Below, one piece after another: positions 2,410 through 24,474 of a stretch of DNA of 64,000 bases (position 1 is the first letter of the stretch; every line of letters begins with the position of its first letter). The position numbers were made by a program, and so were the translations under genes. Location: IMG/VR virus record IMGVR_UViG_3300034110_001238; one strand, written 5' to 3'. The DNA is from an uncultured virus (IMG/VR IMGVR_UViG_3300034110_001238) (taxonomy: Duplodnaviria; Heunggongvirae; Uroviricota; Caudoviricetes). The notes under the pieces were generated by a model, which ran no database searches, was not told the origin of the DNA, and saw only the letters and a list, made by a program, of their open reading frames with translations.

Positions 2410-4761
2410 TTAACTTGGTGAGTTTCTATTTTTTCTTGGTTTTACTACAACTGAAAGATCAGGTCTTGATGTCAAGAACTTTTCTCGCAACGTAACCAAA
2501 TCCAATTCACGGTCTTCTTTTGACATCTTTTTAACACCGTCTAAAAACTCAATCGCATGGGTTTTGTCATCGTCTTTAATATTCAAAGAGCTAACCAAAG
2601 CATGTAGATCAGTTTTAACACCTTTGACAGCATCCACATTGATTTGGTTTACACAATCACTCATAGACTTCCAAAATTGATAGTAAGGAAGCTTAACCAT
2701 AAACATGCTAGATCCTTCAACTACAAAACCTTCCATGTGTCTTTTTGTTTTGAAAGCTGATTCATTAGTCAGTGCATTAAAAAACTTTTCAAAACCTTCA
2801 AAGTTATTAAAGCTTACAAATTTTTTCTTTGCATCAAAAGCTTCAAAATGCCCAGCAAAGGCTTCCAAGTTTTCATAAGTCAATTGTGTTAGAACAACAT
2901 CACGTTTCACTACCGCCAATAATACAATAGAACTCTTTTCTGGCTTAATGATATTTGATTCATTCTTAGCATCAATGACTTCAAAAATATAGTTAACATT
3001 GTGTTTATTTGCAAACACTTTCATAAATTCAAGTTCGCTTGATTTAAGATTGCTCAAAATCAATTGTTTGAAATCTTCTGCTTCAGCGGTATCAATACCA
3101 TATTTAGATGTAAACACCAATGAAGTGTTTTCAACATCATACCCAATCATGGCTAAGCGACCATCTTCTTGTTCAAATACATTCAAAGCCCCAGTTTCTT
3201 TTGCTTTGATAGCATCTAATGTATTATCAGCCACATCTTTTTCATTTAATTCATAAAATTTATCAAAACCTCGTGTGACGATATCCCCTGTTTTATTGTT
3301 CACGACAAGTCCACGAATCTTAACAGACGATTTCTGGATGTTTGATTCAACGACATCATGACTAAAATTAAATGTAGATAAATGTGGTTTTGAGATAGAT
3401 ACAGTTTCCACCAATAATTTATTGTCTCTCAAATCCTGAAGCAATTCCATACCACTCTTATGACCATCTACTTTACGGTTTAAAAAATGAGCAAGAGCAC
3501 CTTCTGGTTCAGCATTACCAAACATACCCGCTTCTTTTTCCATTTTAAGCACTTCTTCTTTGTTAAATACTTTATTGGTAATGTAGACTCCATTGAAGCC
3601 TTCGCGGCTTACTCTTAACACCGGCAAGCTACCACCGTATTCAACATCAGCTTCCAGTGCAAAGCTTTTAGGATAACTATTGAAATCTAGTTTGTGTTGA
3701 TTTCTATGACCATGAACCTGATACCATTCATTGTCTTTATTTTGTTCATTAAACTTACCATCAACGTCATAACTGTATGGGCCATAACCACGCATATATT
3801 CATCATCAGCCAAAAGACGTGGAAATTCAGGAACAGCCGTCAAACCAGCATGTGTGGTCATGATTTTTTTTCCATTGTATTGAATAAAGCTAAATAACTG
3901 CATTTTACGATACAATTCTTTCATATCTTCTTTTGTAAATCCTGCTTTTTCAAGTTGTGGCAATGTTTTATTCATAAATTCATCGGGTGGTGTGTAGATA
4001 TCATGACTGTAGTTATACATATGCTTCTCATGATTACCAGCAAGAATTAATACGTTAGGGTATTCAAGATATTTTCGAACAAAGTGAAGGCACTTATCGT
4101 TTTCAATGCCACGATCAAGATAATCACCGACAAAAATATAAAATTCATCTTTTTTGAAACCGCCTTCCTTTTCAAAATATTTTTTCAATGGATAAAATGA
4201 ACCTTGAAGATCACCGATGTAATGGATCTTCTTGTAACCACTTAAATCAATCATTAAGTCTTCTGGTGAAGCTTTAACAAACTTAATAGCAGCTTCTGGT
4301 GTAATAATTTTCGTCATGTCATTGAATGATGCATTCTGAAACAATTCGTAGTTTCTATCAATCGCATCTTTTGGCAATCTTTTGTAAGGTTCACGTTGAT
4401 CGTTACGAGCGTAATAAAATTCAATAGGTTGCAATGGGAATTGAACCACACGATAATCATAATCAAATTTTTGCAAAAGGTCCATATAAGAATCAATCGC
4501 TTTCTGGTCTTGGTTAAGATTGTCAATAAAGAGAACACCACCCATTTGAAGTCTCAATTCAAAGGCTTCCATAAATTTACCAAAAACCAAATCTTCTCGA
4601 TTGTTGGATAATACAAGGCGACCATCCATATCTGTTGCAGCTCCTGCATAAATATGACGAATAGCATCAAGAGATAAACTATGAGCATCTAATCCATGTT
4701 CTCTAATAAAAGTTGATTTACCAGTCCCCGGCATCGCTGATAAAAAGTAAACTGTTCTCAT
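2410..4761 (-). CDS. Pnkp-like protein: P-loop kinase + calcineurin-like phosphoesterase + Rnl1-like ligase domain
   Basis: AMPGTGKS; GDLQG, GDYLDRG, GNHE, HAG, HGH; RGFDKF, IFEVI, EGFVV, KLPYY. Confidence 0.85.
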   Translation of the reverse strand: MRTVYFLSAMPGTGKSTFIREHGLDAHSLSLDAIRHIYAGAATDMDGRLVLSNNREDLVFGKFMEAFELRLQMGGVLFIDNLNQDQKAIDSYMDLLQKFDYDYRVVQFPLQPIEFYYARNDQREPYKRLPKDAIDRNYELFQNASFNDMTKIITPEAAIKFVKASPEDLMIDLSGYKKIHYIGDLQGSFYPLKKYFEKEGGFKKDEFYIFVGDYLDRGIENDKCLHFVRKYLEYPNVLILAGNHEKHMYNYSHDIYTPPDEFMNKTLPQLEKAGFTKEDMKELYRKMQLFSFIQYNGKKIMTTHAGLTAVPEFPRLLADDEYMRGYGPYSYDVDGKFNEQNKDNEWYQVHGHRNQHKLDFNSYPKSFALEADVEYGGSLPVLRVSREGFNGVYITNKVFNKEEVLKMEKEAGMFGNAEPEGALAHFLNRKVDGHKSGMELLQDLRDNKLLVETVSISKPHLSTFNFSHDVVESNIQKSSVKIRGLVVNNKTGDIVTRGFDKFYELNEKDVADNTLDAIKAKETGALNVFEQEDGRLAMIGYDVENTSLVFTSKYGIDTAEAEDFKQLILSNLKSSELEFMKVFANKHNVNYIFEVIDAKNESNIIKPEKSSIVLLAVVKRDVVLTQLTYENLEAFAGHFEAFDAKKKFVSFNNFEGFEKFFNALTNESAFKTKRHMEGFVVEGSSMFMVKLPYYQFWKSMSDCVNQINVDAVKGVKTDLHALVSSLNIKDDDKTHAIEFLDGVKKMSKEDRELDLVTLREKFLTSRPDLSVVVKPRKNRNSPS

Positions 4762-11330: not shown

Positions 11331-12095
11331 TTAAATCAACAAAATATCTAACAGTGTTTTCTCTTCTGGTGTCATTCGTTCCCAAAACAAATGAAAGTTC
11401 GCTAAGGTTATCTGTGTGCTATCAAACATATTTTCTTCTAGCAGTGATATCTTTTTACTGGTTGCTCTATTTAATATCTGAACCACATTTAATTGATTAC
11501 CTTCAAATTCAATATAGTCAGGATATGTTTGTTTAGATTCATCATTATAGTCATCATAACAAATATGAACAGTTTTTTTATCATTTTTAAAAAGAGACGC
11601 AATAATAAATTGATCAGGAGCATATTTAAAACCAACATCTACACGAATTAAGCTTGGTTTATCTAAAACTAGATTACCTGTTTGTCTAATTTCGAAGTGT
11701 TCAAAAAACGGAACATCAACGGTTTCTGGATACAGATTATATTGTTGTGCTGCATCACTGTAATAACTTTGAAAGGAGCTTTCATAATTTAAATCTGCTT
11801 TCTTAATATACTCCATATTACTTTCAGTATTTTTAATCCAATATTTTTCTTTAACATTTGTATCATAAACATTAATAATTAAAATCAATTCATCAAAAAT
11901 TTGAAAGTATAATTTTGTTAAATTTTTAAATTGTTGAAAACCTGATTTTATAAGCAAATCATAAAATAATTCTGAGCGATGACTTTCAAAACAGACAGTA
12001 GTCGCTGGTGTTCTTAAATAACGAAAAAGCGTTTCTTTTTCTGTCTCGATATCAACAAACAATAAGTGTATATCGGTATTTTCCAAATCCATCAT
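11331..12095 (-). CDS. hypothetical protein, tandem paralog family A
   Basis: Shares GFKY..D and ITLxNFHLFW with neighbours. Confidence 0.8.
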   Translation of the reverse strand: MMDLENTDIHLLFVDIETEKETLFRYLRTPATTVCFESHRSELFYDLLIKSGFQQFKNLTKLYFQIFDELILIINVYDTNVKEKYWIKNTESNMEYIKKADLNYESSFQSYYSDAAQQYNLYPETVDVPFFEHFEIRQTGNLVLDKPSLIRVDVGFKYAPDQFIIASLFKNDKKTVHICYDDYNDESKQTYPDYIEFEGNQLNVVQILNRATSKKISLLEENMFDSTQITLANFHLFWERMTPEEKTLLDILLI

Positions 12096-12136
12096 ATAAG
12101 AATCCTCATTTTAAATATTTTTAAATATGTAAGCGA

Positions 12137-12916
12137 CTACACCATTAACATTTCAATCAATGTTAGTTGTTCAGCAGTGTAACGTTCCCAGAAAAGGTGA
12201 TAATTATCAAGTGTAATATGAGCATCAAATTCATCACGAACATTCATCATCGACATCTTTTTCTGATTCTTTGGATTAAATATTATTAAATCGACCAGTT
12301 CATCATTAATAAACTGAATAAATTCGGCATACATATACTGACAGTTAGGTGTATAGGTATCATATTGAATTTGTATACGTTTATCCGCTCTATCAAAAAC
12401 AGAACCAAACATAAATTTATCTTGACCATATTTAAAACCTAAATCTAATCTAAGCAGTTTCGGTGTTTCATAAGCTGACCGAACTAGATAATTAACGTAA
12501 AAAGGCATATCTAAAGATTCTGGAAAGAGTTTATGATTAAAGACTTCACTATCGCTATGAAAATCTTTAAATGAACCATTATAAGCCTTTTTATTACTAA
12601 ATGATTCTACCGCTTTCAAGTTCGCTGTAGAGTTGTAAAGATAATATTTTTCTCTCATTACAAAATTATCGACACTGGCTTCTAAGTAAACAACGAAAAT
12701 ATACGCTCCTAAAACTTGAAAGTAATGTGGAGTGTCAGCCGTCTTAATTTTTGAAAAACCAGCGTTGCTAAAAACATTGTCTAGCATTTCATAATTGTAG
12801 TTAATAAAAGCAACACACACATCTGTTTCATACACATGGTTAGAAAATTCGTTCGCATCAAAGGTATTAATATTTACAGTGATAAGCTTCATCTCATTGT
12901 TTTTTAAATCAATCAT
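12137..12916 (-). CDS. hypothetical protein, tandem paralog family A
   Basis: GFKYGQD, ITLDNYHLFW. Confidence 0.8.
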   Translation of the reverse strand: MIDLKNNEMKLITVNINTFDANEFSNHVYETDVCVAFINYNYEMLDNVFSNAGFSKIKTADTPHYFQVLGAYIFVVYLEASVDNFVMREKYYLYNSTANLKAVESFSNKKAYNGSFKDFHSDSEVFNHKLFPESLDMPFYVNYLVRSAYETPKLLRLDLGFKYGQDKFMFGSVFDRADKRIQIQYDTYTPNCQYMYAEFIQFINDELVDLIIFNPKNQKKMSMMNVRDEFDAHITLDNYHLFWERYTAEQLTLIEMLMV

Positions 12917-12926
12917 TATTCAATCC

Positions 12927-13685
12927 TTATATTGCAGACATTTCAACAAGAAGTTTTTGTTCTGGTGTAAAATCATTCCAAAATAAATGAAAGTTATCCA
13001 AAGTAATAGCAGTGACATCTATAATATCAGAATCCTGTGTGATATCTAAATTTATTTTTTTTGTTTTGTTGATTAATCTAGCAACATTCATGCGGCCAGC
13101 AACAAATTCAATAAAATCAGAACATAAATGATCAAATTTATCAACATAATTTGTATAACTTATGTGGACATAACTGCCTTTCCGATGAAAAATTCTAACT
13201 GACATCATTTTATCTTTTTCGTATTTAAATGAAAGTACAATTTTATTAATTTTAATTTGTTCATCAATGATATGAGTAACATCAAACATTTCATTAAATG
13301 GAGTTTCCAAGGTTGTATCATAAAATTGATAAATACTCTCATTGATACAATCTAAAGATTCCAAGGGATCATAGGATTCCTTAAAATTATTTTCAATATA
13401 ATTAAGATTTCCGTCAGTTAATTGAACCCAGAATTTATCCCTAATATAGAAATCTTCTACATGAACTAGAAGTATCTTTCCATTAGTAACCTTATAGTGG
13501 ATAGTTCGTAATGTTGAACTGATGTCTTTAAACCCATGAAAAAGCAAAATATCTTTAATAATAGATTCATCTTCATAAAAATATACGGTCGTACCAATGG
13601 TTGTCAACGCCGTCATGAAAATATCGTTAGGTAGACTTTTAGTAACGAATAAAACATTAGGTTCTATGTTTTTAATATCCAGCAT
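12927..13685 (-). CDS. hypothetical protein, tandem paralog family A
   Basis: SFKYEKD, ITLDNFHLFW. Confidence 0.8.
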   Translation of the reverse strand: MLDIKNIEPNVLFVTKSLPNDIFMTALTTIGTTVYFYEDESIIKDILLFHGFKDISSTLRTIHYKVTNGKILLVHVEDFYIRDKFWVQLTDGNLNYIENNFKESYDPLESLDCINESIYQFYDTTLETPFNEMFDVTHIIDEQIKINKIVLSFKYEKDKMMSVRIFHRKGSYVHISYTNYVDKFDHLCSDFIEFVAGRMNVARLINKTKKINLDITQDSDIIDVTAITLDNFHLFWNDFTPEQKLLVEMSAI

Positions 13686-13760
13686 GATAAGACCTCATTA
13701 GAATGCCAGTATTATAGCACATTCCATGTAGAGATATCAATAAAAAATAACCCTATACGT

Positions 13761-14531
13761 TTATTCAATCAGCATTTCAATAACTGTTAAAGTTTCTTTA
13801 TTAATTTTTTGGAAAAATAAATGATAGTTATCAATGTTGACATGACTGGTATCAATTAATGAATTTAGGTTGGTTGATTTAACAGATCCTTTCTTGTTTT
13901 CCACTGCATAGGATATTAATGTTCCATATTCAGAGAATGTTAAGTCTGTTACAATTAGGTTATTGTTGTCTTCATTTGAAATATATTGAACATCAAACAT
14001 GCCGTCCATCCAAACTTGTTCAATACGGTATTTTAAATCTTGATATTTAAATACACTATACGTCACACCCATATCCAGATGCTCAGGAAAATCAAAAACT
14101 TCTTTATAGGCTTTTGTGTTACTTGTTATATAAAATGCATTTCCAAGCAATGTTTCTTCGGAGTCACCAACCGTTGATAAAAGTTGAAGAGCGTTCTCAC
14201 GATTTAAGCTCTTAATGATATTAAGATTTCGTTCATTGTTTAAGATGTATGATTTTGATGATATATAAGATTTATTTGTGTTATTTAAACGTGCTATGTC
14301 AATTAATAGGATGTAATTGTCAAAAGATTTAAAAAGATATTCACTGGATTCTAAATTGACAATAGAGATAAAGCCAGCTTGTTCTAAAAGAGATGACTTT
14401 ATTACATTGTCATCAAATACTGCAGTTTTCCCAACTTTGAAAATGATATGCTCTAATTCATCAATGGTGAGAGGTGCAGCGTATCGTATTCGATTTTTCA
14501 ATTTTTGCTCCTTAAAAAAAATGAAGGTCAT
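13761..14531 (-). CDS. hypothetical protein, divergent family A member
   Basis: FKYQD, VNIDNYHLFF; GGAGG RBS before 14531. Confidence 0.75.
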   Translation of the reverse strand: MTFIFFKEQKLKNRIRYAAPLTIDELEHIIFKVGKTAVFDDNVIKSSLLEQAGFISIVNLESSEYLFKSFDNYILLIDIARLNNTNKSYISSKSYILNNERNLNIIKSLNRENALQLLSTVGDSEETLLGNAFYITSNTKAYKEVFDFPEHLDMGVTYSVFKYQDLKYRIEQVWMDGMFDVQYISNEDNNNLIVTDLTFSEYGTLISYAVENKKGSVKSTNLNSLIDTSHVNIDNYHLFFQKINKETLTVIEMLIE

Positions 14532-14554
14532 TTGACCTCCATTCTTATGTTGTT

Positions 14555-15556
14555 TTAAATAACTTCGTGATATTTGAGTTCTTTCTTTAAGTAACAATAA
14601 AGAATAGGAGCGGCAATAAGCCCAGTGACACCAAATATAGATTCCATTATCAACATTGCAACTAAGAGTTCAAATGCTTTAGCTTCTATTCTACTACCGA
14701 TAATTTTAGCATTCAAGAAGTATTCGAATTTATGTATGAAAATTAAATAAGCAAAGGCACTGACACCTACATACGGTGAAACGGATAAACCAACAAGCAA
14801 TACAATCGCATTCACAATCAAGTTACCCGCAATAGGGATTAAACCGATAACAAATGTCAAGATGATGATAGTTTTTGCGAATGGGAAATCAACACCAAAG
14901 AGCGGCATAGCAATAAGCAAGAACAATGCAGTCATTACAGCATTAAAGAGTGCAATACCTGCTTGTGCAACCATTACATGTTTGAAAGACTCAATTAAAT
15001 GTGAATAACGTGTTTTTAGTGAATCAAGAAACATCTTATCAGTTTTAACATAATCACTAGCAGCAATCATAATACCAATAATCATACCCAAGATCATAGT
15101 AATCAACGTATGAGTTGCACCACGACTAAATTCTCTTAGTACAAATAGATTTTCTTTCATGAAATCAACAATACTGACTTTTAGTTTATGAATATCTTGT
15201 GGGAAGAATCCTGATATTTTTGGCGGTAAATCTTTTATTGTCTTATCAAGCACTGTTGTGATTTCATTAACAATCATGTCTGGATTACTAACAGTCTTAT
15301 AGAGCCAAGAGAATGAATACATCGAGATAAGTGTTAAAAAACCTATAATAATAAGAGATATGACGACAGTAGAAACAAACTTAGACATATTTCCAAGCTT
15401 CATATACTTATTCATCATGTCTTCTGAAAATCTCATCATAAGAAATGTAACCATACCTGCGAGTAATGCGGGTAGTAAAGATATCTTCATAATCGTTATA
15501 AACCCTATTACCATCAGGCATATAACACCAACGTCTACTTTTTGTCTTAATTGCAT
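14555..15556 (-). CDS. AI-2E (PerM-like) family transporter
   Basis: Multi-TM; GLIPIAGNL, HKFEYFLNAKIIG, FGVTGLIAAP. Confidence 0.85.
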   Translation of the reverse strand: MQLRQKVDVGVICLMVIGFITIMKISLLPALLAGMVTFLMMRFSEDMMNKYMKLGNMSKFVSTVVISLIIIGFLTLISMYSFSWLYKTVSNPDMIVNEITTVLDKTIKDLPPKISGFFPQDIHKLKVSIVDFMKENLFVLREFSRGATHTLITMILGMIIGIMIAASDYVKTDKMFLDSLKTRYSHLIESFKHVMVAQAGIALFNAVMTALFLLIAMPLFGVDFPFAKTIIILTFVIGLIPIAGNLIVNAIVLLVGLSVSPYVGVSAFAYLIFIHKFEYFLNAKIIGSRIEAKAFELLVAMLIMESIFGVTGLIAAPILYCYLKKELKYHEVI

Positions 15557-17298: not shown

Positions 17299-17372
17299 GC
17301 ACCATCTCCATTATATTAACATTTCTATTATCTTATGATGATTGAAATCAAAGTCAACGAGCACGAAATCAT

Positions 17373-17401
17373 TTGACTTTGAAACGAACCTTTGATAAAA
17401 T
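17373..17401 (+). promoter_or_regulatory. promoter P1 of Leu leader
   Basis: TTGACT-17bp-TAAAAT with extended TG. Confidence 0.7.
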
Positions 17402-17425
17402 ATAAGAATTAACGAGGACGAAATT

Positions 17426-17488
17426 ATGTTCACAACTATTCGATTATCACTGCTACTCTTAAGCTCACTATTACTTAGCTTGGGCTAG
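17426..17488 (+). CDS. Leu-rich leader peptide MFTTIRLSLLLLSSLLLSLG
   Basis: GAGGA RBS; 9 Leu codons of 20, covering TTA, TTG, CTT, CTC, CTA and CTG. Confidence 0.8.
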   Translation: MFTTIRLSLLLLSSLLLSLG

Positions 17489-17498
17489 CATCTATTTG

Positions 17499-17594
17499 TC
17501 TGCATTTTGGACAATTAGATTGTCCAGATGCAGATGACCTCGAATATAAAAACTCGCCTCATTTCGCATCTGGACCCCAAAAGGGTCTTTTTTT
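17499..17594 (+). promoter_or_regulatory. attenuator-like alternative hairpins and intrinsic terminator
   Basis: Hairpin 17499-17534; alternative pairing TCCAGATGC(17523-31)/GCATCTGGA(17566-74) overlapping terminator GACCC-CAAAA-GGGTC-T7. Confidence 0.75.
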
Positions 17595-17684
17595 ATGGGC
17601 GAATGTCTAGGGTTAACTACAACTATAAATAACGTAAATCATTGATTTAAAAGGAAAATATTTTAAAATATTTTAAAATAATTG

Positions 17685-17713
17685 TTGACAAAGAAGAAAA
17701 GAGTTGGTAAGAT
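17685..17713 (+). promoter_or_regulatory. promoter P2 of tRNA array
   Basis: TTGACA-17bp-TAAGAT with AT-rich upstream region. Confidence 0.75.
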
Positions 17714-17765
17714 AGTAAACATGAAGAGTGAGGAAACAAACAAACACTCTTAAAGAAATAAATAT

Positions 17766-17850
17766 GCGGATGTGGCGAAACTGGTAAACGCGACTGTCTC
17801 AAACACAGTTTCTATAATGATTGTGAGTTCAAGTCTCACCTTCCGCACCA
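17766..17850 (+). tRNA. tRNA-Leu(CAA), slightly divergent
   Basis: Cloverleaf, ACTGT-CTCAAAC-ACAGT, one T-T mismatch in acceptor, ACCA end. Confidence 0.85.
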
Positions 17851-17949
17851 AATAAAGATTTAAAATTGGGTTGCTCCGGTTCCCACTGGAAACTTTGAAA
17901 CATAGTAATTATTAGCTTGTAACTCACTATTATCAAAGTCAAACCCCTG

Positions 17950-18033
17950 ATGAGTATGATGTAATGGTAGCCATAATGTCTTCGCTTAGACATGCCCCAT
18001 AAAGGCGTAAGGGTTCGAGTCCCTTTACTCATT
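17950..18033 (+). ncRNA. tRNA-like RNA with aberrant 8-nt anticodon loop, no encoded CCA
   Basis: ATGAGTA/TACTCAT acceptor, D arm, ATGTC-TTCGCTTA-GACAT, long variable arm, AAGGG-TTCGAGT-CCCTT. Confidence 0.65.
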
Positions 18034-18040
18034 AAGATAT

Positions 18041-18124
18041 GCGATTGTGGTGGAATGGTATACACGTTGGTCTAAGAAGCCAATGCCGCAAGGATTGAGA
18101 GTTCAAGTCTCTCCAATCGCACCA
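18041..18124 (+). tRNA. tRNA-Leu(AAG)
   Basis: TTGGT-CTAAGAA-GCCAA; full cloverleaf; ACCA. Confidence 0.9.
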
Positions 18125-18156
18125 GATTTATAGTAAGATATGTAGCTACAACATAA

Positions 18157-18240
18157 GCCCCGATGGCGGAATGGTAGACGCGGCGGATTCAAAATCCGTT
18201 TCCGAAAGGAGTGGGAGTTCGAGTCTCCCTCGGGGCACCA
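18157..18240 (+). tRNA. tRNA-Leu(CAA)
   Basis: GCGGA-TTCAAAA-TCCGT; ACCA. Confidence 0.95.
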
Positions 18241-18262
18241 AATTGATGTAAAGAAATATCAC

Positions 18263-18346
18263 GCGGAAGTGATGAAATGGTAGACGTGCTGGCCTTAGAA
18301 GCCAGTGTCGAGAGACGTGTGGGTTCGAGTCCCACCTTCCGCACCA
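18263..18346 (+). tRNA. tRNA-Leu(TAG)
   Basis: CTGGC-CTTAGAA-GCCAG; ACCA. Confidence 0.95.
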
Positions 18347-18350
18347 GATT

Positions 18351-18500
18351 GCTTAAATGATGGAATGGTAGACATAGGGTGATAGCCCTGTCATTACAGG
18401 TTCGAATCCTGTTATTAGTATCTTACTAATATGGCGGAACGGTAGACGCGATGGACATTGAGTCCATGACTTGTAGGTTCGACTCCTACTTTAAGCGACA
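18351..18500 (+). ncRNA. double (domain-swapped) tRNA-like RNA with two D arms and two T arms
   Basis: GCTTAAA(18351-57) pairs with TTTAAGC(18490-96); internal TATTAGTA-TCT-TACTAATA hairpin lies between T arm 1 and D arm 2. Confidence 0.75.
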
Positions 18501-18506
18501 AATTAT

Positions 18507-18590
18507 GCGTTAGTGGTGGAATGGTATACACGCTGGTCTAAGAAGCCAGTGCCGAAAGGATTGTGAGTTCGAGTCTCACCTAACGCACCA
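18507..18590 (+). tRNA. tRNA-Leu(AAG)
   Basis: CTGGT-CTAAGAA-GCCAG; ACCA. Confidence 0.9.
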
Positions 18591-18601
18591 AATTTAGATA
18601 T

Positions 18602-18687
18602 GCCCGAATGGTGAAATTGGTAGTACACAGGAGACTTAAAATCTCCCGCTGAAAGGCGTGTCGGTTCGAGTCCGACTTCGGGTACCA
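18602..18687 (+). tRNA. tRNA-Leu(TAA)
   Basis: GGAGA-CTTAAAA-TCTCC; ACCA. Confidence 0.95.
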
Positions 18688-18701
18688 AATTATGAGTTAC
18701 T

Positions 18702-18786
18702 GCGGAAGTGATGAAATGGTAGCACATGCTGGTTTCAGAAACCAGTGCCGCGAGGCGTGTGGGTTCGAGTCCCATCTTCCGTACCA
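18702..18786 (+). tRNA. tRNA-Leu(CAG)
   Basis: CTGGT-TTCAGAA-ACCAG; ACCA. Confidence 0.95.
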
Positions 18787-18797
18787 GATTTAGATAT

Positions 18798-18883
18798 GCC
18801 CGAATGGTGAAATTGGTAGTACACAGGAGATTCAAAATCTCCCGCTGAAAAGCGTGTCGGTTCGAGTCCGACTTCGGGTACCA
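18798..18883 (+). tRNA. tRNA-Leu(CAA)
   Basis: GGAGA-TTCAAAA-TCTCC; ACCA. Confidence 0.95.
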
Positions 18884-18901
18884 GATTGTACATGTGTTTA
18901 T

Positions 18902-18986
18902 CCCCGGATGGTGGAATTGGTAGACACAGGAGACTTAAAATCTCCCGCCGAAAGGCGTGCCGGTTCGAGTCCGGCTCCGGGGACCA
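18902..18986 (+). tRNA. tRNA-Leu(TAA)
   Basis: GGAGA-CTTAAAA-TCTCC; ACCA. Confidence 0.95.
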
Positions 18987-18990
18987 GATT

Positions 18991-19088
18991 TAATTCAATA
19001 TCGAAGGTTCGAATCCTTTTCTCGTGTTTGCACGGGGTGGTGGAGTGGTAGACACGTTTGCTGAAATGCATTCTAAAATATTGAATTA
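18991..19088 (+). ncRNA. circularly permuted tRNA-like RNA (T arm - closed acceptor - D arm; YrlA-like topology)
   Basis: GAAGG-TTCGAAT-CCTTT, TCTCGTG-TTTG-CACGGGG, TG, GTG-GAGTGGTAGA-CAC, closed by TAATTCAATAT/ATATTGAATTA. Confidence 0.75.
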
Positions 19089-19097
19089 CTTTTTTAT

Positions 19098-19181
19098 GCC
19101 CGAATGGCGAAATGGTAGACGCGGGGGACTTAAAATCCCCTTCCTTCGGGAGTGACGGTTCGAGTCCGTCTTCGGGCACCA
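19098..19181 (+). tRNA. tRNA-Leu(TAA)
   Basis: GGGGA-CTTAAAA-TCCCC; ACCA. Confidence 0.95.
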
Positions 19182-19216
19182 ACTTTATGTTTTATTTCTT
19201 ACAAAGGTATTTAAAC

Positions 19217-19561
19217 ATGACAAACTCAGCCAAAGGTAAAATTGTTATCGTTAATTTGTATGACAATCGTTATTGGAATATCTTCCTTGATGGCGAACTG
19301 GTTGCAGAGCCACATAAAGAAGATTTTACTGATTATGTCTTTAAACGTTCTATTCGAAAAGAATGGGCCGATATTGCTGGTGTTGATGAAACTGATTTGA
19401 GTTACAGTTTAATTGATTTATATGAACATGAAGATAGTATTCCTGATTATGATGCCAATGATTTTGAAGACTATCAAGATTTGATAACCTGTTGCAAAAA
19501 TAATAATATAGATTTTATCTTTGAAAATGTTGATTTAAACTATATTGAAAAGAAGTATTAA
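19217..19561 (+). CDS. small acidic hypothetical protein inside the tRNA array
   Basis: AAGGT RBS before ATG 19217; the longer ORF call overlaps a tRNA. Confidence 0.7.
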   Translation: MTNSAKGKIVIVNLYDNRYWNIFLDGELVAEPHKEDFTDYVFKRSIRKEWADIAGVDETDLSYSLIDLYEHEDSIPDYDANDFEDYQDLITCCKNNNIDFIFENVDLNYIEKKY

Positions 19562-19568
19562 TGTCTAT

Positions 19569-19652
19569 GCGGAAATGGTGGAATGGTAGACACGCTGGTC
19601 TTAGAAGCCAGTGCCGAAAGGCGTGTGGGTTCGAGTCCCACTTTCCGCACCA
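19569..19652 (+). tRNA. tRNA-Leu(TAG)
   Basis: CTGGT-CTTAGAA-GCCAG; ACCA. Confidence 0.95.
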
Positions 19653-19666
19653 ATTAAATCATAATT

Positions 19667-19695
19667 AAAACTGTATATTGTATACAGTTTTTTTT
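19667..19695 (+). terminator. intrinsic terminator ending the tRNA array
   Basis: AAAACTGTATA-TTG-TATACAGTTTTTTTT. Confidence 0.75.
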
Positions 19696-19785
19696 GCTTT
19701 TTAAATGATTAAAAGAAATGATTGTATAATTATCCCTTTTGTATTATAATAATATAGTTAACCAATATAATATAATGAGGATTAA

Positions 19786-20409
19786 ATGACTAGTAAGAAT
19801 GAAATTGTAATTAAAGCGTATATGGCTGGCCCTGATGTCTTTCACCCTGACGCAAAAATAAACGCTGAAGTGACCAGACTATTATGTGAAAAGCACGGTA
19901 TTGTTGCTTTAATTCCATTGGATAATGAAGTGTCTACTGATAACACTCCAAGTCAGATATCCCAAGAAATATACGATAAGAATACTAACTTGATGGATTC
20001 TGCTGACTTGTTTATTGTCAATATGTCACCATTCCGTGGCCCATCAACTGATGTGGGGACTGCATTTGAAATGGGATATGCGGCGGCACAAAAAAAGAAA
20101 GTGTTTGCATTCACATCCGATCTTCGCCCTTACAAAGAACGTGTTGAAGACTACATGAAGAAAGCAGGAAATGATGGTCAAGCTGTTGAAGATTTTGGTA
20201 ATGTGGATAACACTATGCTGGATAAAAGTGTTGTGGAAATTCAAAGTGAGCTTTCAGCAGTCTTGGAATCACCTAAATTTAAAAGTTTCATTTTTATGTT
20301 AAGAAAACAAAAAGAGGAAATCGCTGAGAAATCCGCACTTGACCCAGAACACAATCAGGTTAAAATTCCACGACCAGCAAAAATAGGATCACTCAGATCT
20401 CAACCTTAA
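19786..20409 (+). CDS. nucleoside 2-deoxyribosyltransferase family protein
   Basis: YMAGPDVF, PFRGPSTDVGTAFEMGYA, VEDFG..DNTM. Confidence 0.9.
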   Translation: MTSKNEIVIKAYMAGPDVFHPDAKINAEVTRLLCEKHGIVALIPLDNEVSTDNTPSQISQEIYDKNTNLMDSADLFIVNMSPFRGPSTDVGTAFEMGYAAAQKKKVFAFTSDLRPYKERVEDYMKKAGNDGQAVEDFGNVDNTMLDKSVVEIQSELSAVLESPKFKSFIFMLRKQKEEIAEKSALDPEHNQVKIPRPAKIGSLRSQP

Positions 20410-20422
20410 AATAAAAGCCAGT

Positions 20423-21616
20423 TTACACTGGCTTTATTGTTTTCTTCTGTTTCAATGTGTTACCCCAATCTTTTAATTCAAGTGTCTTAAAATTATCCTT
20501 ACTTGATTTATAGTCATCAATCGTCTCATAGAATCTGACCACTTGATATCCATACTCTTTCAATTTATCGAATAACAGTTTCTTCTGAAAATCAGGAGTT
20601 CTTGATTCAGCTTTCGATATACCATATTTTTCAAAATAAGCATCTTTCAATAACATGAAAGGGTTGATTTTTTCTTTGAATTCACTTTTGTCAGCATGTG
20701 TTAAAATATTTCTTGAATACAAGTTGTCAGCCAACTTCATAAAATATTGCTTTCCATATTCATTGTCATTTGTTTCGTATTCATCTAAGCTGTTCACATT
20801 GAACGCAGAGTTGTTATAAAGCAATCCAATGTTTAAAGTTTTGACACCACTTAAACTATCTTTAATGCCAAATCTTTTTGTGAGGTAGTCATTAGGTTGT
20901 TCAATATTGAGTTCATTCTTAAAATTAATGGTTAAGCATTCAATTAATGCGTAAGTTTCCACTCGCATATTATCATTTCTGGTTCTTAATGTTTCTAATG
21001 TTTGTGAATAGGTTTCTGTTTCAATTTCGAATTGAGCAGAAATATCATCATCAAATTCATTTTGTAAAATCAATAACTCGTTTTCCAATGCTAATAATTC
21101 ATTGGCTGCAGTTGTTTTCTGAGACAATCTATAATTCTTAACGTCATCATCATTCACATCAATATCAAGCATAGATTCGGCAACATCAAGTTCTCTTGAT
21201 TTCGATTCAATCTTATCATTAAGATCATTGTATTTATTATGAGCTTCTTCCCAACGATTTATAATCTGATTGATATAACGCTCTTGTGAATCTACATCAA
21301 TGTTGAAATGATACATTTCTTTGATATTATCAATCATCATATTTATTTCTAAATCTGATTTAAGAGCTTTTACTTCATCAGGAAGGTTTTCATAGCTAGC
21401 AATCACATCAGAAACCCATTTCTTTAAGTTATCAACAGCTTCGAAGAGATCATATGAATATACGGTTAAATCACTTGGATTTTGATAAAGAGCGACTTCG
21501 AATACTCGTGTACACGTTTTACCTTGAAAGATAAGTGGATTAATAAAAGGGCATGTAATAGGATGTGTTTCATGGTAACCAAGTAAAGTGTCAGTGAGTA
21601 TTTGTTTCATCGTCAT
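20423..21616 (-). CDS. coiled-coil hypothetical protein
   Basis: 397-aa ORF. Confidence 0.75.
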   Translation of the reverse strand: MTMKQILTDTLLGYHETHPITCPFINPLIFQGKTCTRVFEVALYQNPSDLTVYSYDLFEAVDNLKKWVSDVIASYENLPDEVKALKSDLEINMMIDNIKEMYHFNIDVDSQERYINQIINRWEEAHNKYNDLNDKIESKSRELDVAESMLDIDVNDDDVKNYRLSQKTTAANELLALENELLILQNEFDDDISAQFEIETETYSQTLETLRTRNDNMRVETYALIECLTINFKNELNIEQPNDYLTKRFGIKDSLSGVKTLNIGLLYNNSAFNVNSLDEYETNDNEYGKQYFMKLADNLYSRNILTHADKSEFKEKINPFMLLKDAYFEKYGISKAESRTPDFQKKLLFDKLKEYGYQVVRFYETIDDYKSSKDNFKTLELKDWGNTLKQKKTIKPV

Positions 21617-21745
21617 TTAAGGTTATTATTTATTATATTGTAGCATGTTTTCAGATAGGAACAAAAAATAATAATATCTAACAGTTGAAAAAAAACAAAA
21701 AAACGTGTATAATCATACTGTAAAAAACCTATAGGAGATTTGCTT

Positions 21746-21934
21746 ATGAGCACTATTAATTTTAATGTAAACAATCATTGCACTTACAGCGTTACCAAAG
21801 TAGTCCATGAACGTGATGTCATCAACAGACAAGTGAACACAGACGTTGAAATACAAAAGCATGTCTACGAGACTAATAAAATAGAACAAGAACAAAACAA
21901 TACAGTACATCAACGTATAGACGTTTACGTTTAA
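21746..21934 (+). CDS. small hypothetical protein ending RIDVYV
   Basis: TTGAAA-17-TATAAT promoter, AGGAG RBS, terminator at 21937-21961. Confidence 0.65.
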   Translation: MSTINFNVNNHCTYSVTKVVHERDVINRQVNTDVEIQKHVYETNKIEQEQNNTVHQRIDVYV

Positions 21935-21990
21935 ATAAAAGACCTTTGAAAAGGTCTTTTTGCTAAAAAATATAAAAAGGACTAAAACCC

Positions 21991-22965
21991 ATGCAGAACT
22001 TTGAAACAAAAGAATTAGACAACGCCCTTAAATTTTTAAGTCTTCTTGGCTGTGAATTAAGCTCACTTGAATATATAGAAAAAGATGGCGTTTTTTATAA
22101 TTCTAAAAGCTTTGAACCTATCGACAACCTCTTGACTTATATCTTAATCAACTATCAACATCCATCTGATCTTCATTTTAATTTTGATAGTAGAAATAAA
22201 ACCATTGGGTTAAGAATTAGGCGACATGGGCAACTGATAAAAACATCATTAATATCAACTTCAAAAGACAATTATACCAATGCTCAATTTGGAAACAGTT
22301 CAATAAATTATTCAACAGAATATTTTAAAGATATATTTTCAAAAATTATTGTTAAAAGTTCAATGGAAAGTGGAGAAAGTTACGATTTCCTAAGCGATGT
22401 AACCATTCCTGTTTTTGGCAATTATAGATTAATGAAAGTTGCTTGTGGTCATGATGGACTTGTAAGAATTCTCAGTCAAGATCAAAATTATGGTATTAGT
22501 CATGATAATAATATTATGCAAATTAAAGAAAATCCTATATACATAGGTGAAGCTGAATTTAACAAAAACCTACTGATTTGTAGTTCATTTATTACATTAA
22601 CTCCTGAAATTCAACAACAAGTTGAACTCTACAATGATAACATATTAAAAATGTTTAATGCCATTCCTCATCTAATTGAATCATTTAATAATGGCTATCT
22701 AGATAAAAAAATGAAACTTGTTTTAGAATATATCGGTGACAATGTAATCAATGTCAGTATTTCAAAAAATTATTCAACTGGGCATGAAATGGACAAAGTT
22801 ATTTCAAAATATCTTTATGAAAATTATCAAGATTTTTATGATCCAGTCTTCACAAACTTTGTTGAAAATGTGACCAAAGTAAAAATAGATCCAACAATTG
22901 GAGAGTTTAAAACACCAGAAGCTTTTCAAAATTATCTGTTATCACTCGCTATGTTTAAAATTTAA
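21991..22965 (+). CDS. hypothetical protein (C-terminal MxxI motif)
   Basis: ORF with AAGGA RBS; ends SLAMFKI. Confidence 0.75.
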   Translation: MQNFETKELDNALKFLSLLGCELSSLEYIEKDGVFYNSKSFEPIDNLLTYILINYQHPSDLHFNFDSRNKTIGLRIRRHGQLIKTSLISTSKDNYTNAQFGNSSINYSTEYFKDIFSKIIVKSSMESGESYDFLSDVTIPVFGNYRLMKVACGHDGLVRILSQDQNYGISHDNNIMQIKENPIYIGEAEFNKNLLICSSFITLTPEIQQQVELYNDNILKMFNAIPHLIESFNNGYLDKKMKLVLEYIGDNVINVSISKNYSTGHEMDKVISKYLYENYQDFYDPVFTNFVENVTKVKIDPTIGEFKTPEAFQNYLLSLAMFKI

Positions 22966-23019
22966 TACGGTTAAAACAAAAAACCGCCTAGGCGGTTTAG
23001 TTGTCTCTACATATGGTTA

Positions 23020-24150
23020 TTATAGTTGTTGTAATTCTTCGATACTGACTGTTTTCGACGTGTTTGTTTCTCTGTTCAACACTTCATATTGATTGTTAAC
23101 AATACTCTTGTTACTGACAATAATACGATTGCTGACACCAATCAATTCACTATCATTGAACTTATTACCTGCTGAGATATTTCTATCATCTAACAAGACT
23201 GAATAACCTTGTTTCTTTAATGATTGATAAAGACCATCAGCGACTTCTTTATTCTTCTCATAATCAATAGCCGTTATAATGTAATCAAAGGTATTGAAAG
23301 CTGCAGTGCCAAAGAAACCTTTTTCATCACGTTGTTTTTCTAATAAAGCCATCAATGTTCTGGATACACCAATACCAAAGCATGCCATATTCACATGTTG
23401 TTTGATATTATCCAATAAGCCCATTTTTTCAGAGTAGTGAATACCCAAGTTAAAGATGTGTCCTATTTCAAGGTTTTTGCTACCATCTTCACCGATATCC
23501 TCACCAAACTCACTGATACAACGGAACTCTTCTGACGCTATACCACCCATCTCACCCACATCAGATCCTTGAATATGAAATTCTAATCCTAAACGTGTAA
23601 ATATTTTGATATAGGCTTCTTTCACTTCATTGTAAGTCGTCACAATATTCTCTTTGCTATTAGAGAAATGATAAGCATCTGACATTAAAAACTCACGACC
23701 ACGCACTAAACCAGATTTAGCTCTTAACTCATCTCTATATTTATTACCAATTTGAAACATCTTCAAATTTGTTTTCGTAAAATTGTAGTAAGACTTTACA
23801 ATGTTAGTGATGGATTCTTCACATGTAGCACTCAAAACAAGCTCTTTGCCAGCCCTGTTTTTTAATTTGAATAATTCTTCACCGTATTGGTCATATCGGC
23901 CCGTTTCTTTCCATAAATCAGCGTCTTGAATTAAACTTAAACGCATTTGTGAAAAGCCAATCTCTGATAATTCATCTTCGATGATTCGTTCTATCTTCTT
24001 CTCTAAGATATAACCCAGTGACAAAGTGGAATAAATGCCAGATGAGTCTTGATTAAAGAAGCACGCTTTTTTAGTTAAGTCTACCAAGTTCAATGATTGG
24101 TTATCTTTAGCGAATGAACTGTTGTTAAAAAATATGTTTGAAAATTTCAT
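23020..24150 (-). CDS. proS: prolyl-tRNA synthetase, short form lacking the INS editing domain
   Basis: LWKETGRY, ATCEE, KYRDELRAKSGLVRGREFLMSDAY, EIGHIFNLG, MACFGIGVSR, LLDDR anticodon-binding domain. Confidence 0.93.
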   Translation of the reverse strand: MKFSNIFFNNSSFAKDNQSLNLVDLTKKACFFNQDSSGIYSTLSLGYILEKKIERIIEDELSEIGFSQMRLSLIQDADLWKETGRYDQYGEELFKLKNRAGKELVLSATCEESITNIVKSYYNFTKTNLKMFQIGNKYRDELRAKSGLVRGREFLMSDAYHFSNSKENIVTTYNEVKEAYIKIFTRLGLEFHIQGSDVGEMGGIASEEFRCISEFGEDIGEDGSKNLEIGHIFNLGIHYSEKMGLLDNIKQHVNMACFGIGVSRTLMALLEKQRDEKGFFGTAAFNTFDYIITAIDYEKNKEVADGLYQSLKKQGYSVLLDDRNISAGNKFNDSELIGVSNRIIVSNKSIVNNQYEVLNRETNTSKTVSIEELQQL

Positions 24151-24210
24151 GATGTGTATCCTCTTAAATTGATTTATTTTATTGTGTTGTAATAGTTTGT
24201 TTTGAGCAAT

Positions 24211-24233
24211 AAAAAACGCCCATATTGGGCGTT
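24211..24233 (-). terminator. attenuator terminator upstream of proS
   Basis: AACGCCC-AATAT-GGGCGTT-TTTT on the minus strand, ~60 nt before the proS start. Confidence 0.8.
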
Positions 24234-24260
24234 AAGGTCAATTTAAAAGTAAATAGAGTC

Positions 24261-24323
24261 TTAGACGCCCAACATGAGCGGTAGAGGTCGAATAGTTTTG
24301 AATAATGCAATATTACTTTTCAT
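24261..24323 (-). CDS. proS leader peptide MKSNIALFKTIRPLPLMLGV
   Basis: AGGA RBS; CCT and CCG codons just 5' of an 11-nt segment complementary to the terminator 5' arm. Confidence 0.75.
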   Translation of the reverse strand: MKSNIALFKTIRPLPLMLGV

Positions 24324-24348
24324 TTTGTATTTTCCTATGTATTTTTAA

Positions 24349-24377
24349 ATTATACGTTATTTATTGGAATTTAGCAA
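24349..24377 (-). promoter_or_regulatory. promoter of proS leader
   Basis: TTGCTA-17bp-TATAAT. Confidence 0.7.
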
Positions 24378-24474
24378 GCTTTTATTATTAAAATAATAGA
24401 TTAAAAGTGTCTTTAAATCAATTGACATTTCATCATGACTAATTTAAAATATCAGCTCATAATGAGGTGTTTTC

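Follow-up and report, generated by a model that had tools for sequence, protein, structure and literature searches.

What do two open reading frames (ORFs) of 20 codons, one ahead of an array of tRNA-Leu genes and the other ahead of a prolyl-tRNA synthetase (ProRS) gene, owe to each other and to the genes that they precede? The question is raised by a DNA of 64,000 nucleotides from an uncultured virus (IMG/VR record IMGVR_UViG_3300034110_001238), the whole of which is called the window here. A preliminary description of the window had proposed that the two ORFs, hereafter the Leu and Pro leaders, (i) share a nearly identical 15-nt stretch encoding F-x-T-I-R directly before their sensing codons, and TTGGGC at or near their ends, (ii) descend from a common ancestral leader re-specified by exchange of the sensor codons, or use the rare CGA codon to tune ribosome position, and (iii) may have counterparts at other synthetase or tRNA loci of the same element. 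The best explanation of the results is probably that both ORFs encode the leader peptides of ribosome-mediated transcription attenuators, members of a family re-specified for each target.

Anatomy of the leaders and their counterparts in a related contig

The comparison relies on G001, an IMG/VR contig of 181,270 bp labelled provirus, which is about 90% identical to the window, collinear with it at 82-98% identity, and also contains the Leu and Pro leaders. Both leaders of the window comprise a promoter-like site, a ribosome-binding site, a short ORF and a terminator in the correct order and on the strand of the target (Table 1), confirming the two 20-codon ORFs, and the reading of the shared stretch, TTCA(C/A)AACTATTCGA, with 14 of 15 bases common to both, and of TTGGGC proved correct in every detail. 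Codons cognate to the downstream gene are present in both. Leucine accounts for nine of the 20 residues of the Leu leader, against a background of 9.1% (p = 2.8e-5), and its codons (TTA three times, CTA twice, CTG, CTC, CTT and TTG once each) sample all six that specify leucine; the anticodons of the tRNA-Leu genes in the array are CAA (three), TAA (three), AAG (two), TAG (two) and CAG (one). The Pro leader displays its sensor codons Pro13 (CCT) and Pro15 (CCG) as P-L-P, an arrangement (P-x-P) with a chance probability of 0.011.

Three further leaders, outside the window, were found in G001. The first, termed Asx (Asp/Asn), precedes an aspartyl-tRNA synthetase (AspRS) gene, whose product is a class II synthetase scoring as aspartate-tRNA(Asn) ligase (NF003483, 427.8 bits versus a cutoff of 353). 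This non-discriminating type of AspRS serves both Asp and Asn, and the sensor run of the leader is D-N-N-D-N (chance p = 9.5e-4). The second precedes an isoleucyl-tRNA synthetase (IleRS) gene (TIGR00392, 643.8 bits versus a cutoff of 621.4) and carries the run I-I-I-I (p = 8e-4). The third, termed Ala/Arg, precedes a second tRNA array comprising seven tRNA-Ala (TGC six times, GGC once), tRNA-Arg with TCT (two) and CCT (one), two CAT tRNAs and one unassigned gene; its sensor run R-A-R-A is encoded by AGA GCC AGA GCG (p = 3e-4). The two CAT tRNAs of this array (L097:17864-18031) are accompanied by two ATA codons in the leader, and one of them might be an ATA-reading tRNA-Ile.

Taken over G001 and the window, a codon-matched leader with a terminator stands at three of three synthetase genes and two of two tRNA arrays found, the sensor amino acid matching the downstream gene in all five units. 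The expectation of further leaders is borne out, since every synthetase gene and tRNA array found has one; two of the three additional leaders carry T-I-R. The 15-mer has only two matches in the window, at 17429-17443 (+) and 24302-24288 (-), both in frame. Judged by sequence, the element lineage appears to carry a family of at least five such units, one per synthetase gene or tRNA array seen. A Leu-rich short ORF at 2326-2267 (-) of the window lacks a terminator and was dropped.

Between the window and G001 the leaders are 97-100% identical. The Leu unit (17365-17600) shows zero differences, and the Pro unit is unchanged from codon 4 through the terminator (24315-24200), S3T being the only change in its leader peptide.

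Table 1. Positions of the leader units, their parts and their target genes; unprefixed coordinates are those of the window, and those prefixed L090, L095 and L097 belong to loci of G001
Feature	Position	Strand	Basis or remark
Leu leader, promoter-like site TTGACT, 17 nt, TAAAAT, with TG before the -10	17373..17401	+	10/12 consensus matches
Leu leader, Shine-Dalgarno GAGGA, 7 nt 5' of ATG	17414..17418	+	sequence read
Leu leader ORF MFTTIRLSLLLLSSLLLSLG, 20 sense codons and TAG (17486-17488)	17426..17488	+	sequence read
Leu copy of the shared 15-nt motif, TTCACAACTATTCGA (F-T-T-I-R), ending at the codon before the first Leu codon	17429..17443	+	pattern search
Leu TTGGGC (L19-G20, codons 19-20); TTGGG predicted to pair with CCCAA 17576-17580 in terminator 5' arm/loop	17480..17485	+	fold, ribosome at codon 12
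Leu competing stable hairpin, 12+7 pairs	17496..17537	+	fold prediction
Leu antiterminator, 17522-17537 with 17559-17575, 10+6 pairs, taking GGAC of terminator 5' arm	17522..17575	+	fold prediction
Leu intrinsic terminator GGACCC-CAAAA-GGGTCT (hairpin 17572-17588), then T7	17572..17595	+	sequence/fold
Array-head module, with second promoter-like site TTGACA, 17 nt, TAAGAT at 17685-17713	17640..17765	+	sequence, comparison with G001
tRNA array, 11 tRNA-Leu and 2 odd tRNA-like genes	17766..19652	+	ARAGORN 13 genes; Rfam 12/13
Pro leader, promoter-like site TTGCTA, 17 nt, TATAAT	24349..24377	-	10/12 consensus matches
Pro leader, Shine-Dalgarno AGGA, 9 nt 5' of ATG	24333..24336	-	sequence read
Pro leader ORF MKSNIALFKTIRPLPLMLGV, ATG 24323-24321, 20 sense codons and TAA (24263-24261)	24261..24323	-	sequence read
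Pro copy of the shared 15-nt motif, TTCAAAACTATTCGA (F-K-T-I-R), ending at the codon before Pro13	24288..24302	-	pattern search
Pro antiterminator strand TGTTGGGCGT, containing TTGGGC 24272-24267 (codons 18-19); predicted to pair with 24232-24223	24265..24274	-	fold
Pro intrinsic terminator AACGCCCA-ATA-TGGGCGTT (hairpin 24233-24215), then T run	24209..24233	-	sequence/fold
ProRS, 376 aa, 58 nt after the Pro terminator	23020..24150	-	TIGR00409, 336.5 bits (bacterial-type)
Asx leader MTIRFIADNNDNFAQLSVGLSVA; target AspRS	L090:6746-6675	-	terminator L090:6652-6628
Ile leader MKTLNTFVNSIIIIPKLPMS, 20 codons; target IleRS	L095:16445-16383	-	terminator L095:16357-16327
Ala/Arg leader MNIQLTIRARAIS; target second tRNA array	L097:15791-15832	+	terminator L097:15891-15926

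Predicted switching of the leader RNA

Attenuation would demand an antiterminator that excludes the terminator and depends on the position of the ribosome, and such a structure is predicted for the Leu, Pro and Asx leaders. An equilibrium fold model was applied to transcripts truncated at the loop of the terminator, in which a mask of 27 nt stood for the ribosome and was moved from codon to codon; truncated transcripts were used because the partner of the terminator acts before the 3' arm exists. The readout is the probability that an upstream strand holds the 5' arm of the terminator, and the difference between its values at the sensor and at the end of the ORF served as the test statistic against 60 dinucleotide shuffles. 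In the Pro leader this hold probability stays at 0.99 while the A site is no further than codon 14, drops to 0.74 at P15 and to at most 0.22 beyond, and is 0.99 without a ribosome. For Leu it lies between 0.65 and 0.99 over codons 10-15 and between 0.05 and 0.11 over the last three positions (L19, G20 and the stop codon), and is 0.36 without a ribosome; for Asx it is 0.70 up to N12, 0.04-0.28 at codons 14-22 and 0.69 without a ribosome, the value climbing again at the stop codon, where the model permits a helix across the ribosome, which is regarded as unphysical. The sensor-minus-end differences of 0.72 (Leu), 0.68 (Pro) and 0.44 (Asx) were each matched by none of the 60 shuffles. The Ile leader gives 0.66 at I11, falling to 0.31 at I14 and 0.29 near the end, with 0.62 in the absence of a ribosome, and the Ala/Arg leader 0.54 at T6-A9, 0.36 at the stop codon and 0.04 without a ribosome.

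In the proposed mechanism, polymerase would start at the leader promoter, closely trailed by a ribosome translating the 20-codon ORF. When charged tRNA is scarce, the ribosome would wait at the sensor codons, namely Leu codons of all six kinds in the Leu leader and CCT and CCG in the Pro leader. The strand that lies at the 3' end of the ORF or beyond it would then stay exposed and could capture the terminator's 5' arm by pairing, with read-through as the outcome. When decoding is fast, a ribosome at the end of the ORF would cover or displace this strand, the terminator hairpin would form and transcription would stop. For the ProRS gene, read-through would be the sole visible source of transcription, no minus-strand promoter-like site having been found between the Pro terminator and the gene; at the tRNA-Leu array it would add to the conserved second promoter.

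The second element common to both window leaders finds its place in this scheme. According to the model, TTGGG is the antiterminator strand in both, and TTGGGC would be shared because both terminators contain CCCAA and the pairing strand must adjoin the stop codon if it is to be masked by the terminating ribosome. The dipeptide L-G near the end of the ORF occurs in only two of the five leaders and is accounted for, in the predicted folds, by RNA pairing rather than by the peptide. The Pro antiterminator structure has a predicted energy of -18.2 kcal/mol, the terminator hairpin by itself reaching -11.2 kcal/mol. The competing hairpin of the Leu leader, at 17496-17537, is predicted to sequester the antiterminator strand and would therefore favour termination.

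Several results weigh against this interpretation. (i) The switch is not significant for the Ile leader (0.19, reached by 8 of 60 shuffles) or the Ala/Arg leader (0.04, 16 of 60). (ii) The fold model is an equilibrium approximation, and equilibrium folding of the whole leaders favours the terminator at almost every ribosome position for Leu, Asx and Ile, disclosing a clear switch for Pro alone. (iii) The Pro and Asx leaders are predicted to read through even without a ribosome, unlike the trp type. (iv) Proline makes up merely two of the 20 residues of the Pro leader, so that its content of cognate codons is weak on its own (p = 0.09). (v) The tRNA-Leu array is also preceded by a strong promoter-like site downstream of the Leu terminator, so the attenuator cannot be its sole control. 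(vi) Three of the five leaders are known from G001 rather than from the window; moreover, a diverged orthologue of any leader was not found in the searches of viral, phage, plasmid, genome and metagenome sequences given below, G001 being the only relative obtained. (vii) The local alignment of the Leu and Pro leader regions scores 26, which lies within the control range (95th percentile 27-28) and is reached by 6 of 300 shuffles. With these points taken into account, it is still likely that the units are working attenuators.

Shared modules and the Thr-Ile-Arg motif

The bases of the Leu-Pro match are weak evidence when taken alone. The 9-mer ACTATTCGA is present in two copies where 0.49 would be expected, a number that 10 of 100 shuffles also reach. 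Frame, position and recurrence lift the match above chance. The tripeptide T-I-R is present in four of the five leaders (Leu, Pro, Asx and Ala/Arg) versus one of 358 other intergenic short ATG-initiated ORFs in G001 (Fisher p = 3.5e-8), so that four of the five T-I-R-bearing ORFs among these 363 are leaders. In long ORFs T-I-R occupies 6 of 43,468 tripeptide positions, which gives a probability of 8e-10 for four or more occurrences, or 7e-6 allowing for 8,000 tripeptides, with the qualification that the four leaders are not independent events because they may share ancestry.

The local alignments of the five leader regions were judged against 52 control upstream regions of G001 and against shuffles. 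Only the Leu-Asx pair rises above the controls, with a score of 40 that none of 300 shuffles attained (99th percentile of the controls 32, maximum 41). The alignment runs through the -35 box, the spacer, the -10 box, the Shine-Dalgarno sequence and T-I-R, after which the sensor and terminator parts diverge, and the start codon is shifted between the two leaders (TTCACA-ACT in Leu, TTCATG-ACT in Asx). The Asx and Ile units have a terminator in common (score 29). Leu and Pro show no homology apart from the 15 nt and the pairing of TTGGG with CCCAA. The proposal of a common ancestral leader re-specified for new targets would fit Leu and Asx, which are homologous from -35 to T-I-R; it is not supported for Leu and Pro, the pair for which it had been made. 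The Leu/Asx pattern looks like the re-specification of a common 5' module, and T-I-R is most simply taken as an inherited part of that module.

The two tRNA arrays also share a module at their heads (L097:15970-16100 and 17640-17765), about 170 nt being nearly identical after the terminator, including TTGACA, 17 nt and TAAGAT; the leaders of the two arrays (Leu and Ala/Arg) do not align with each other. Among the loci examined and in IMG/VR, the array-head module was seen at these two arrays only. The family would have been assembled from such shared pieces, namely the 5' module from promoter to T-I-R, the terminator types and the array-head module, and re-specified per target. The AT-rich array-head module resembles a stable-RNA promoter with an upstream A/T tract, and would give each array one basal and one attenuator-gated promoter.

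The idea that a rare CGA codon tunes the ribosome as a common feature was rejected. T-I-R is encoded by ACT ATT CGA in the Leu and Pro leaders, ACT ATT CGT in Asx and ACT ATA AGA in Ala/Arg, so that its Arg codon is CGA, CGA, CGT and AGA in turn, and CGT (29%) and AGA (45%) are the two commonest Arg codons, compared with 14% for CGA.

A function of T-I-R in its own right is rather doubtful. On one view, an unlikely one, the tripeptide, or its codons in the ribosomal E and P sites, would be a sensitiser that slows decoding of the next codon and lets the leader respond to modest drops of charged tRNA, as a portable sensor part. In the Leu and Pro leaders T-I-R directly adjoins the first sensor codon on its 5' side, and in Ala/Arg the two overlap; the Ala/Arg leader begins with a degenerate copy (M-N-I-Q, aligned to M-T-I-R of Asx) and has the intact T-I-R right before its sensors. 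The codon differences among the four copies (ATT/ATA, CGA/CGT/AGA) are all synonymous. Such an effect is plausible in principle, since A-site decoding speed has been reported to depend on the codons and tRNAs in the P and E sites in the his-leader system (PMC11805395). Against it, T-I-R lies four codons ahead of the sensors in Asx and is absent from the Ile leader, and the Ala/Arg copy may be fortuitous, given that ATA and AGA could serve as sensor codons in that leader. The synonymous differences number just three or four, among leaders that may share descent. Finally, the bases common to Leu, Pro and Asx (ATTA, 0-2 nt, TTCA, 2 nt, ACTATTCG) extend 5' of the tripeptide into a stretch that is translated in Pro, includes the start codon in Leu and lies partly ahead of the ORF in Asx, which fits inheritance at the level of DNA. 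Comparably unlikely is the extended proposal that the element carries a re-programmable sensor of codon supply, in which a 5' module ending in T-I-R primes stalling and is combined with an exchangeable sensor block and a matched antiterminator, the whole being copied per target. If true, the element would meter its private translation kit codon by codon, and T-I-R would be a portable stalling enhancer for any codon that follows.

Less probable again is that the Leu-Pro resemblance arose by chance between independently evolved attenuators. The alignment score, below the 95th percentile of real upstream pairs, and the frequency of two 9-mer copies in shuffles would agree with this, but both motif copies are in the same frame directly ahead of the sensor codons, T-I-R recurs in two further leaders, TTCAnnACTATTCG is present in the Asx leader too, and there is a second common element, TTGGG, pairing with CCCAA of each terminator.

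It is highly improbable that the conserved bases act as RNA, as a pairing partner or protein-binding site, with the peptide irrelevant. They are kept in three leaders despite a start codon at three different relative places, and ATTCG also turns up in the Ile leader, out of that frame, although a 5-mer is expected fairly often by chance in an AT-rich leader of 60 nt. A conserved partner was not found in the leaders, TCGAAT following in Leu only, and minimum free energy folds show the motif unpaired or in stems of 3-4 bp. The Ala/Arg leader has T-I-R with different bases, and ACT ATT CG keeps one reading frame throughout the three leaders. A possible stem in which GAAT at the 5' end of the transcript would pair with the ATTC of the motif was discarded, its 5' strand probably lying at or before the transcription start.

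That the ORFs encode small hydrophobic peptides (membrane or signalling peptides, or type I toxins, whose genes usually come with an antisense RNA) with terminators of their own, in an incidental location, is a very unlikely explanation: the Leu and Pro peptides are hydrophobic and of 20 residues, each ORF has its own promoter and terminator, and the tRNA-Leu array has a separate promoter-like site, but the enriched amino acid fits the downstream gene in five of five units, the Asx (23 residues) and Ala/Arg (13 residues) peptides are polar or charged, ProRS, AspRS and IleRS begin 43-60 nt past their terminators with no promoter-like site there for ProRS, and in the fold model the partner of the terminator lies exactly where a terminating ribosome would mask it.

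Relation to known systems and to the carrier element

Textbooks describe leader-peptide attenuation as a control of amino-acid operons, and a few synthetase genes are known to be under it too. In the enterobacterial leu leader, as in the Phe, His, Thr and Trp leaders, charged tRNA is sensed through consecutive codons for a single amino acid; compared with these, the controlled genes here are tRNA genes and a synthetase rather than biosynthetic enzymes, and all six Leu codons are sampled. No Rfam leader family was matched by the Leu region, and the best match of the Pro region, Phe_leader, reached 14.8 bits versus a gathering score of 55 (E = 7.1). T-box riboswitches of aminoacyl-tRNA synthetase genes in Firmicutes perform the same task, raising the synthetase when its cognate tRNA is uncharged, but they bind uncharged tRNA directly and act by antitermination that does not need translation, whereas here a ribosome would be the sensor; neither leader region matched a T-box in Rfam at the gathering score or at E up to 10. 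The Salmonella mgtCBR leader reportedly couples Pro codons in a short leader ORF to alternative stem-loops controlling downstream transcription. Likened by description, it resembles the Pro unit in its Pro-codon short ORF, and differs in its target, a virulence/Mg2+ transport operon rather than a translation gene.

Among synthetase genes, leader-peptide attenuation is known for pheM-pheST of gamma-proteobacteria and predicted for leuS and trpS of Streptomyces (PMC1262725). As described there, those systems are alike in the short ORF rich in cognate codons and in the antiterminator and terminator hairpins before the synthetase gene. The present units, likened to them by description, differ in that (i) the targets are ProRS, a non-discriminating AspRS and IleRS, (ii) several units of one element share sequence modules, and (iii) the Pro and Asx units seem to follow a design with two structures, in which read-through needs no translation. 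A description of leader-peptide control of tRNA genes was not found in the literature searched, a search whose coverage left out most subscription journals and in which papers were mostly judged by title or abstract.

Beyond the two attenuators themselves, the analysis adds a family of five units, the modules that they have in common, a predicted pairing role for TTGGG and grounds for discarding the CGA proposal. One AT-rich element lineage would use attenuation as the house style for a whole translation kit, comprising two tRNA arrays and three stripped-down synthetases, and at the arrays the sensed molecule would be the product of the controlled genes. The sharing of parts would make the units a natural example of attenuators duplicated and re-aimed at another amino acid. 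With about 170-230 nt each and different codon specificities, the five compact parts are candidates for codon-specific sensors.

The synthetases of the element look stripped down. ProRS (23020-24150, -) lacks the INS editing domain of about 170 residues, its residues 1-223 and 224-376 aligning to 1-230 and 402-559 of Bacillus ProRS; IleRS (L095:13761-16283, -) is only 841 aa long, with two segments that match the ileS model. Within the tRNA-Leu array, one of the two odd members (17949-18034 or 18424-18499) combines a long variable arm with an anticodon loop of 8 nt (ARAGORN 'cgct') and falls below the Rfam gathering score, and the other is Gln-like with only 38 bits; CCA is not encoded in either, unlike the 11 tRNA-Leu genes, and both are kept in G001.

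The G+C content of the window is 31%; its genes come with Shine-Dalgarno sites, promoters of the sigma-70 type and intrinsic terminators, and most of its ORFs lack a Pfam family. The Pfam comparison behind the count of synthetase genes covered 62 of 71 window ORFs of at least 100 aa and 89 of 93 G001 ORFs of at least 150 aa outside the window-like part (the four left out of G001 straddle locus borders). Phage structural families were not detected among 147 of the 155 G001 ORFs of at least 170 aa. Relatives of ClpA show at least 63% identity, then about 42-47% in mixed phyla, and permit no taxonomic assignment. The window and G001 are best called a large AT-rich element or a region of a bacterial genome, with phage, plasmid and island all possible.

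ProRS proteins of at least 90% identity were found on contigs of up to 1.9 Mb, and other ProRS relatives are 55-72% identical; among the matches listed in genome and metagenome contigs, only distant ProRS (at most 43% identity) were seen. Within IMG/VR viral contigs, G001 was the sole match for ProRS, for Fpg and for the array-head module, and a close relative by DNA or by ProRS was not found in GenBank phages or PLSDB plasmids. Upstream of the ProRS genes of the IMG/VR contigs L082 and L083 (both huge; ProRS 36% identical) and of L084 (38%), a leader was not seen. A 16-base pattern of the motif gave 105 matches in IMG/VR viral contigs, 26 of them inside short ORFs, with a terminator only for the three of G001; the remaining matches were dismissed as chance occurrences within genes.

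About half of the words sampled from window positions 17300-24400 are present in public sequencing runs from many studies, labelled lake water (0.94), phyllosphere, plant, dairy, wastewater and single organisms; these are word matches only and not evidence of habitat, and the element or a close relative may be widespread because many public runs contain its words. G001 contains about 8.5 kb absent from the window (65667-74159; L093:5667-14159), located between the homologues of window positions 21667 and 21685 and including a 2309-aa ORF without a PHROG match. Tandem ORFs of similar size (252-285 aa) without a Pfam family, maybe paralogue arrays, lie at window 11331-14597 (-) and L095:3616-8623 (-). 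Finally, an RNA-repair kit stands beside the tRNA and synthetase genes (window 2410-4761, -; L090:8791-10224; L098:1060-1509), comprising a 783-aa Pnkp-like kinase-phosphatase-RNA ligase, RtcB and the HAD domain of 'Swiss Army Knife' RNA repair proteins.

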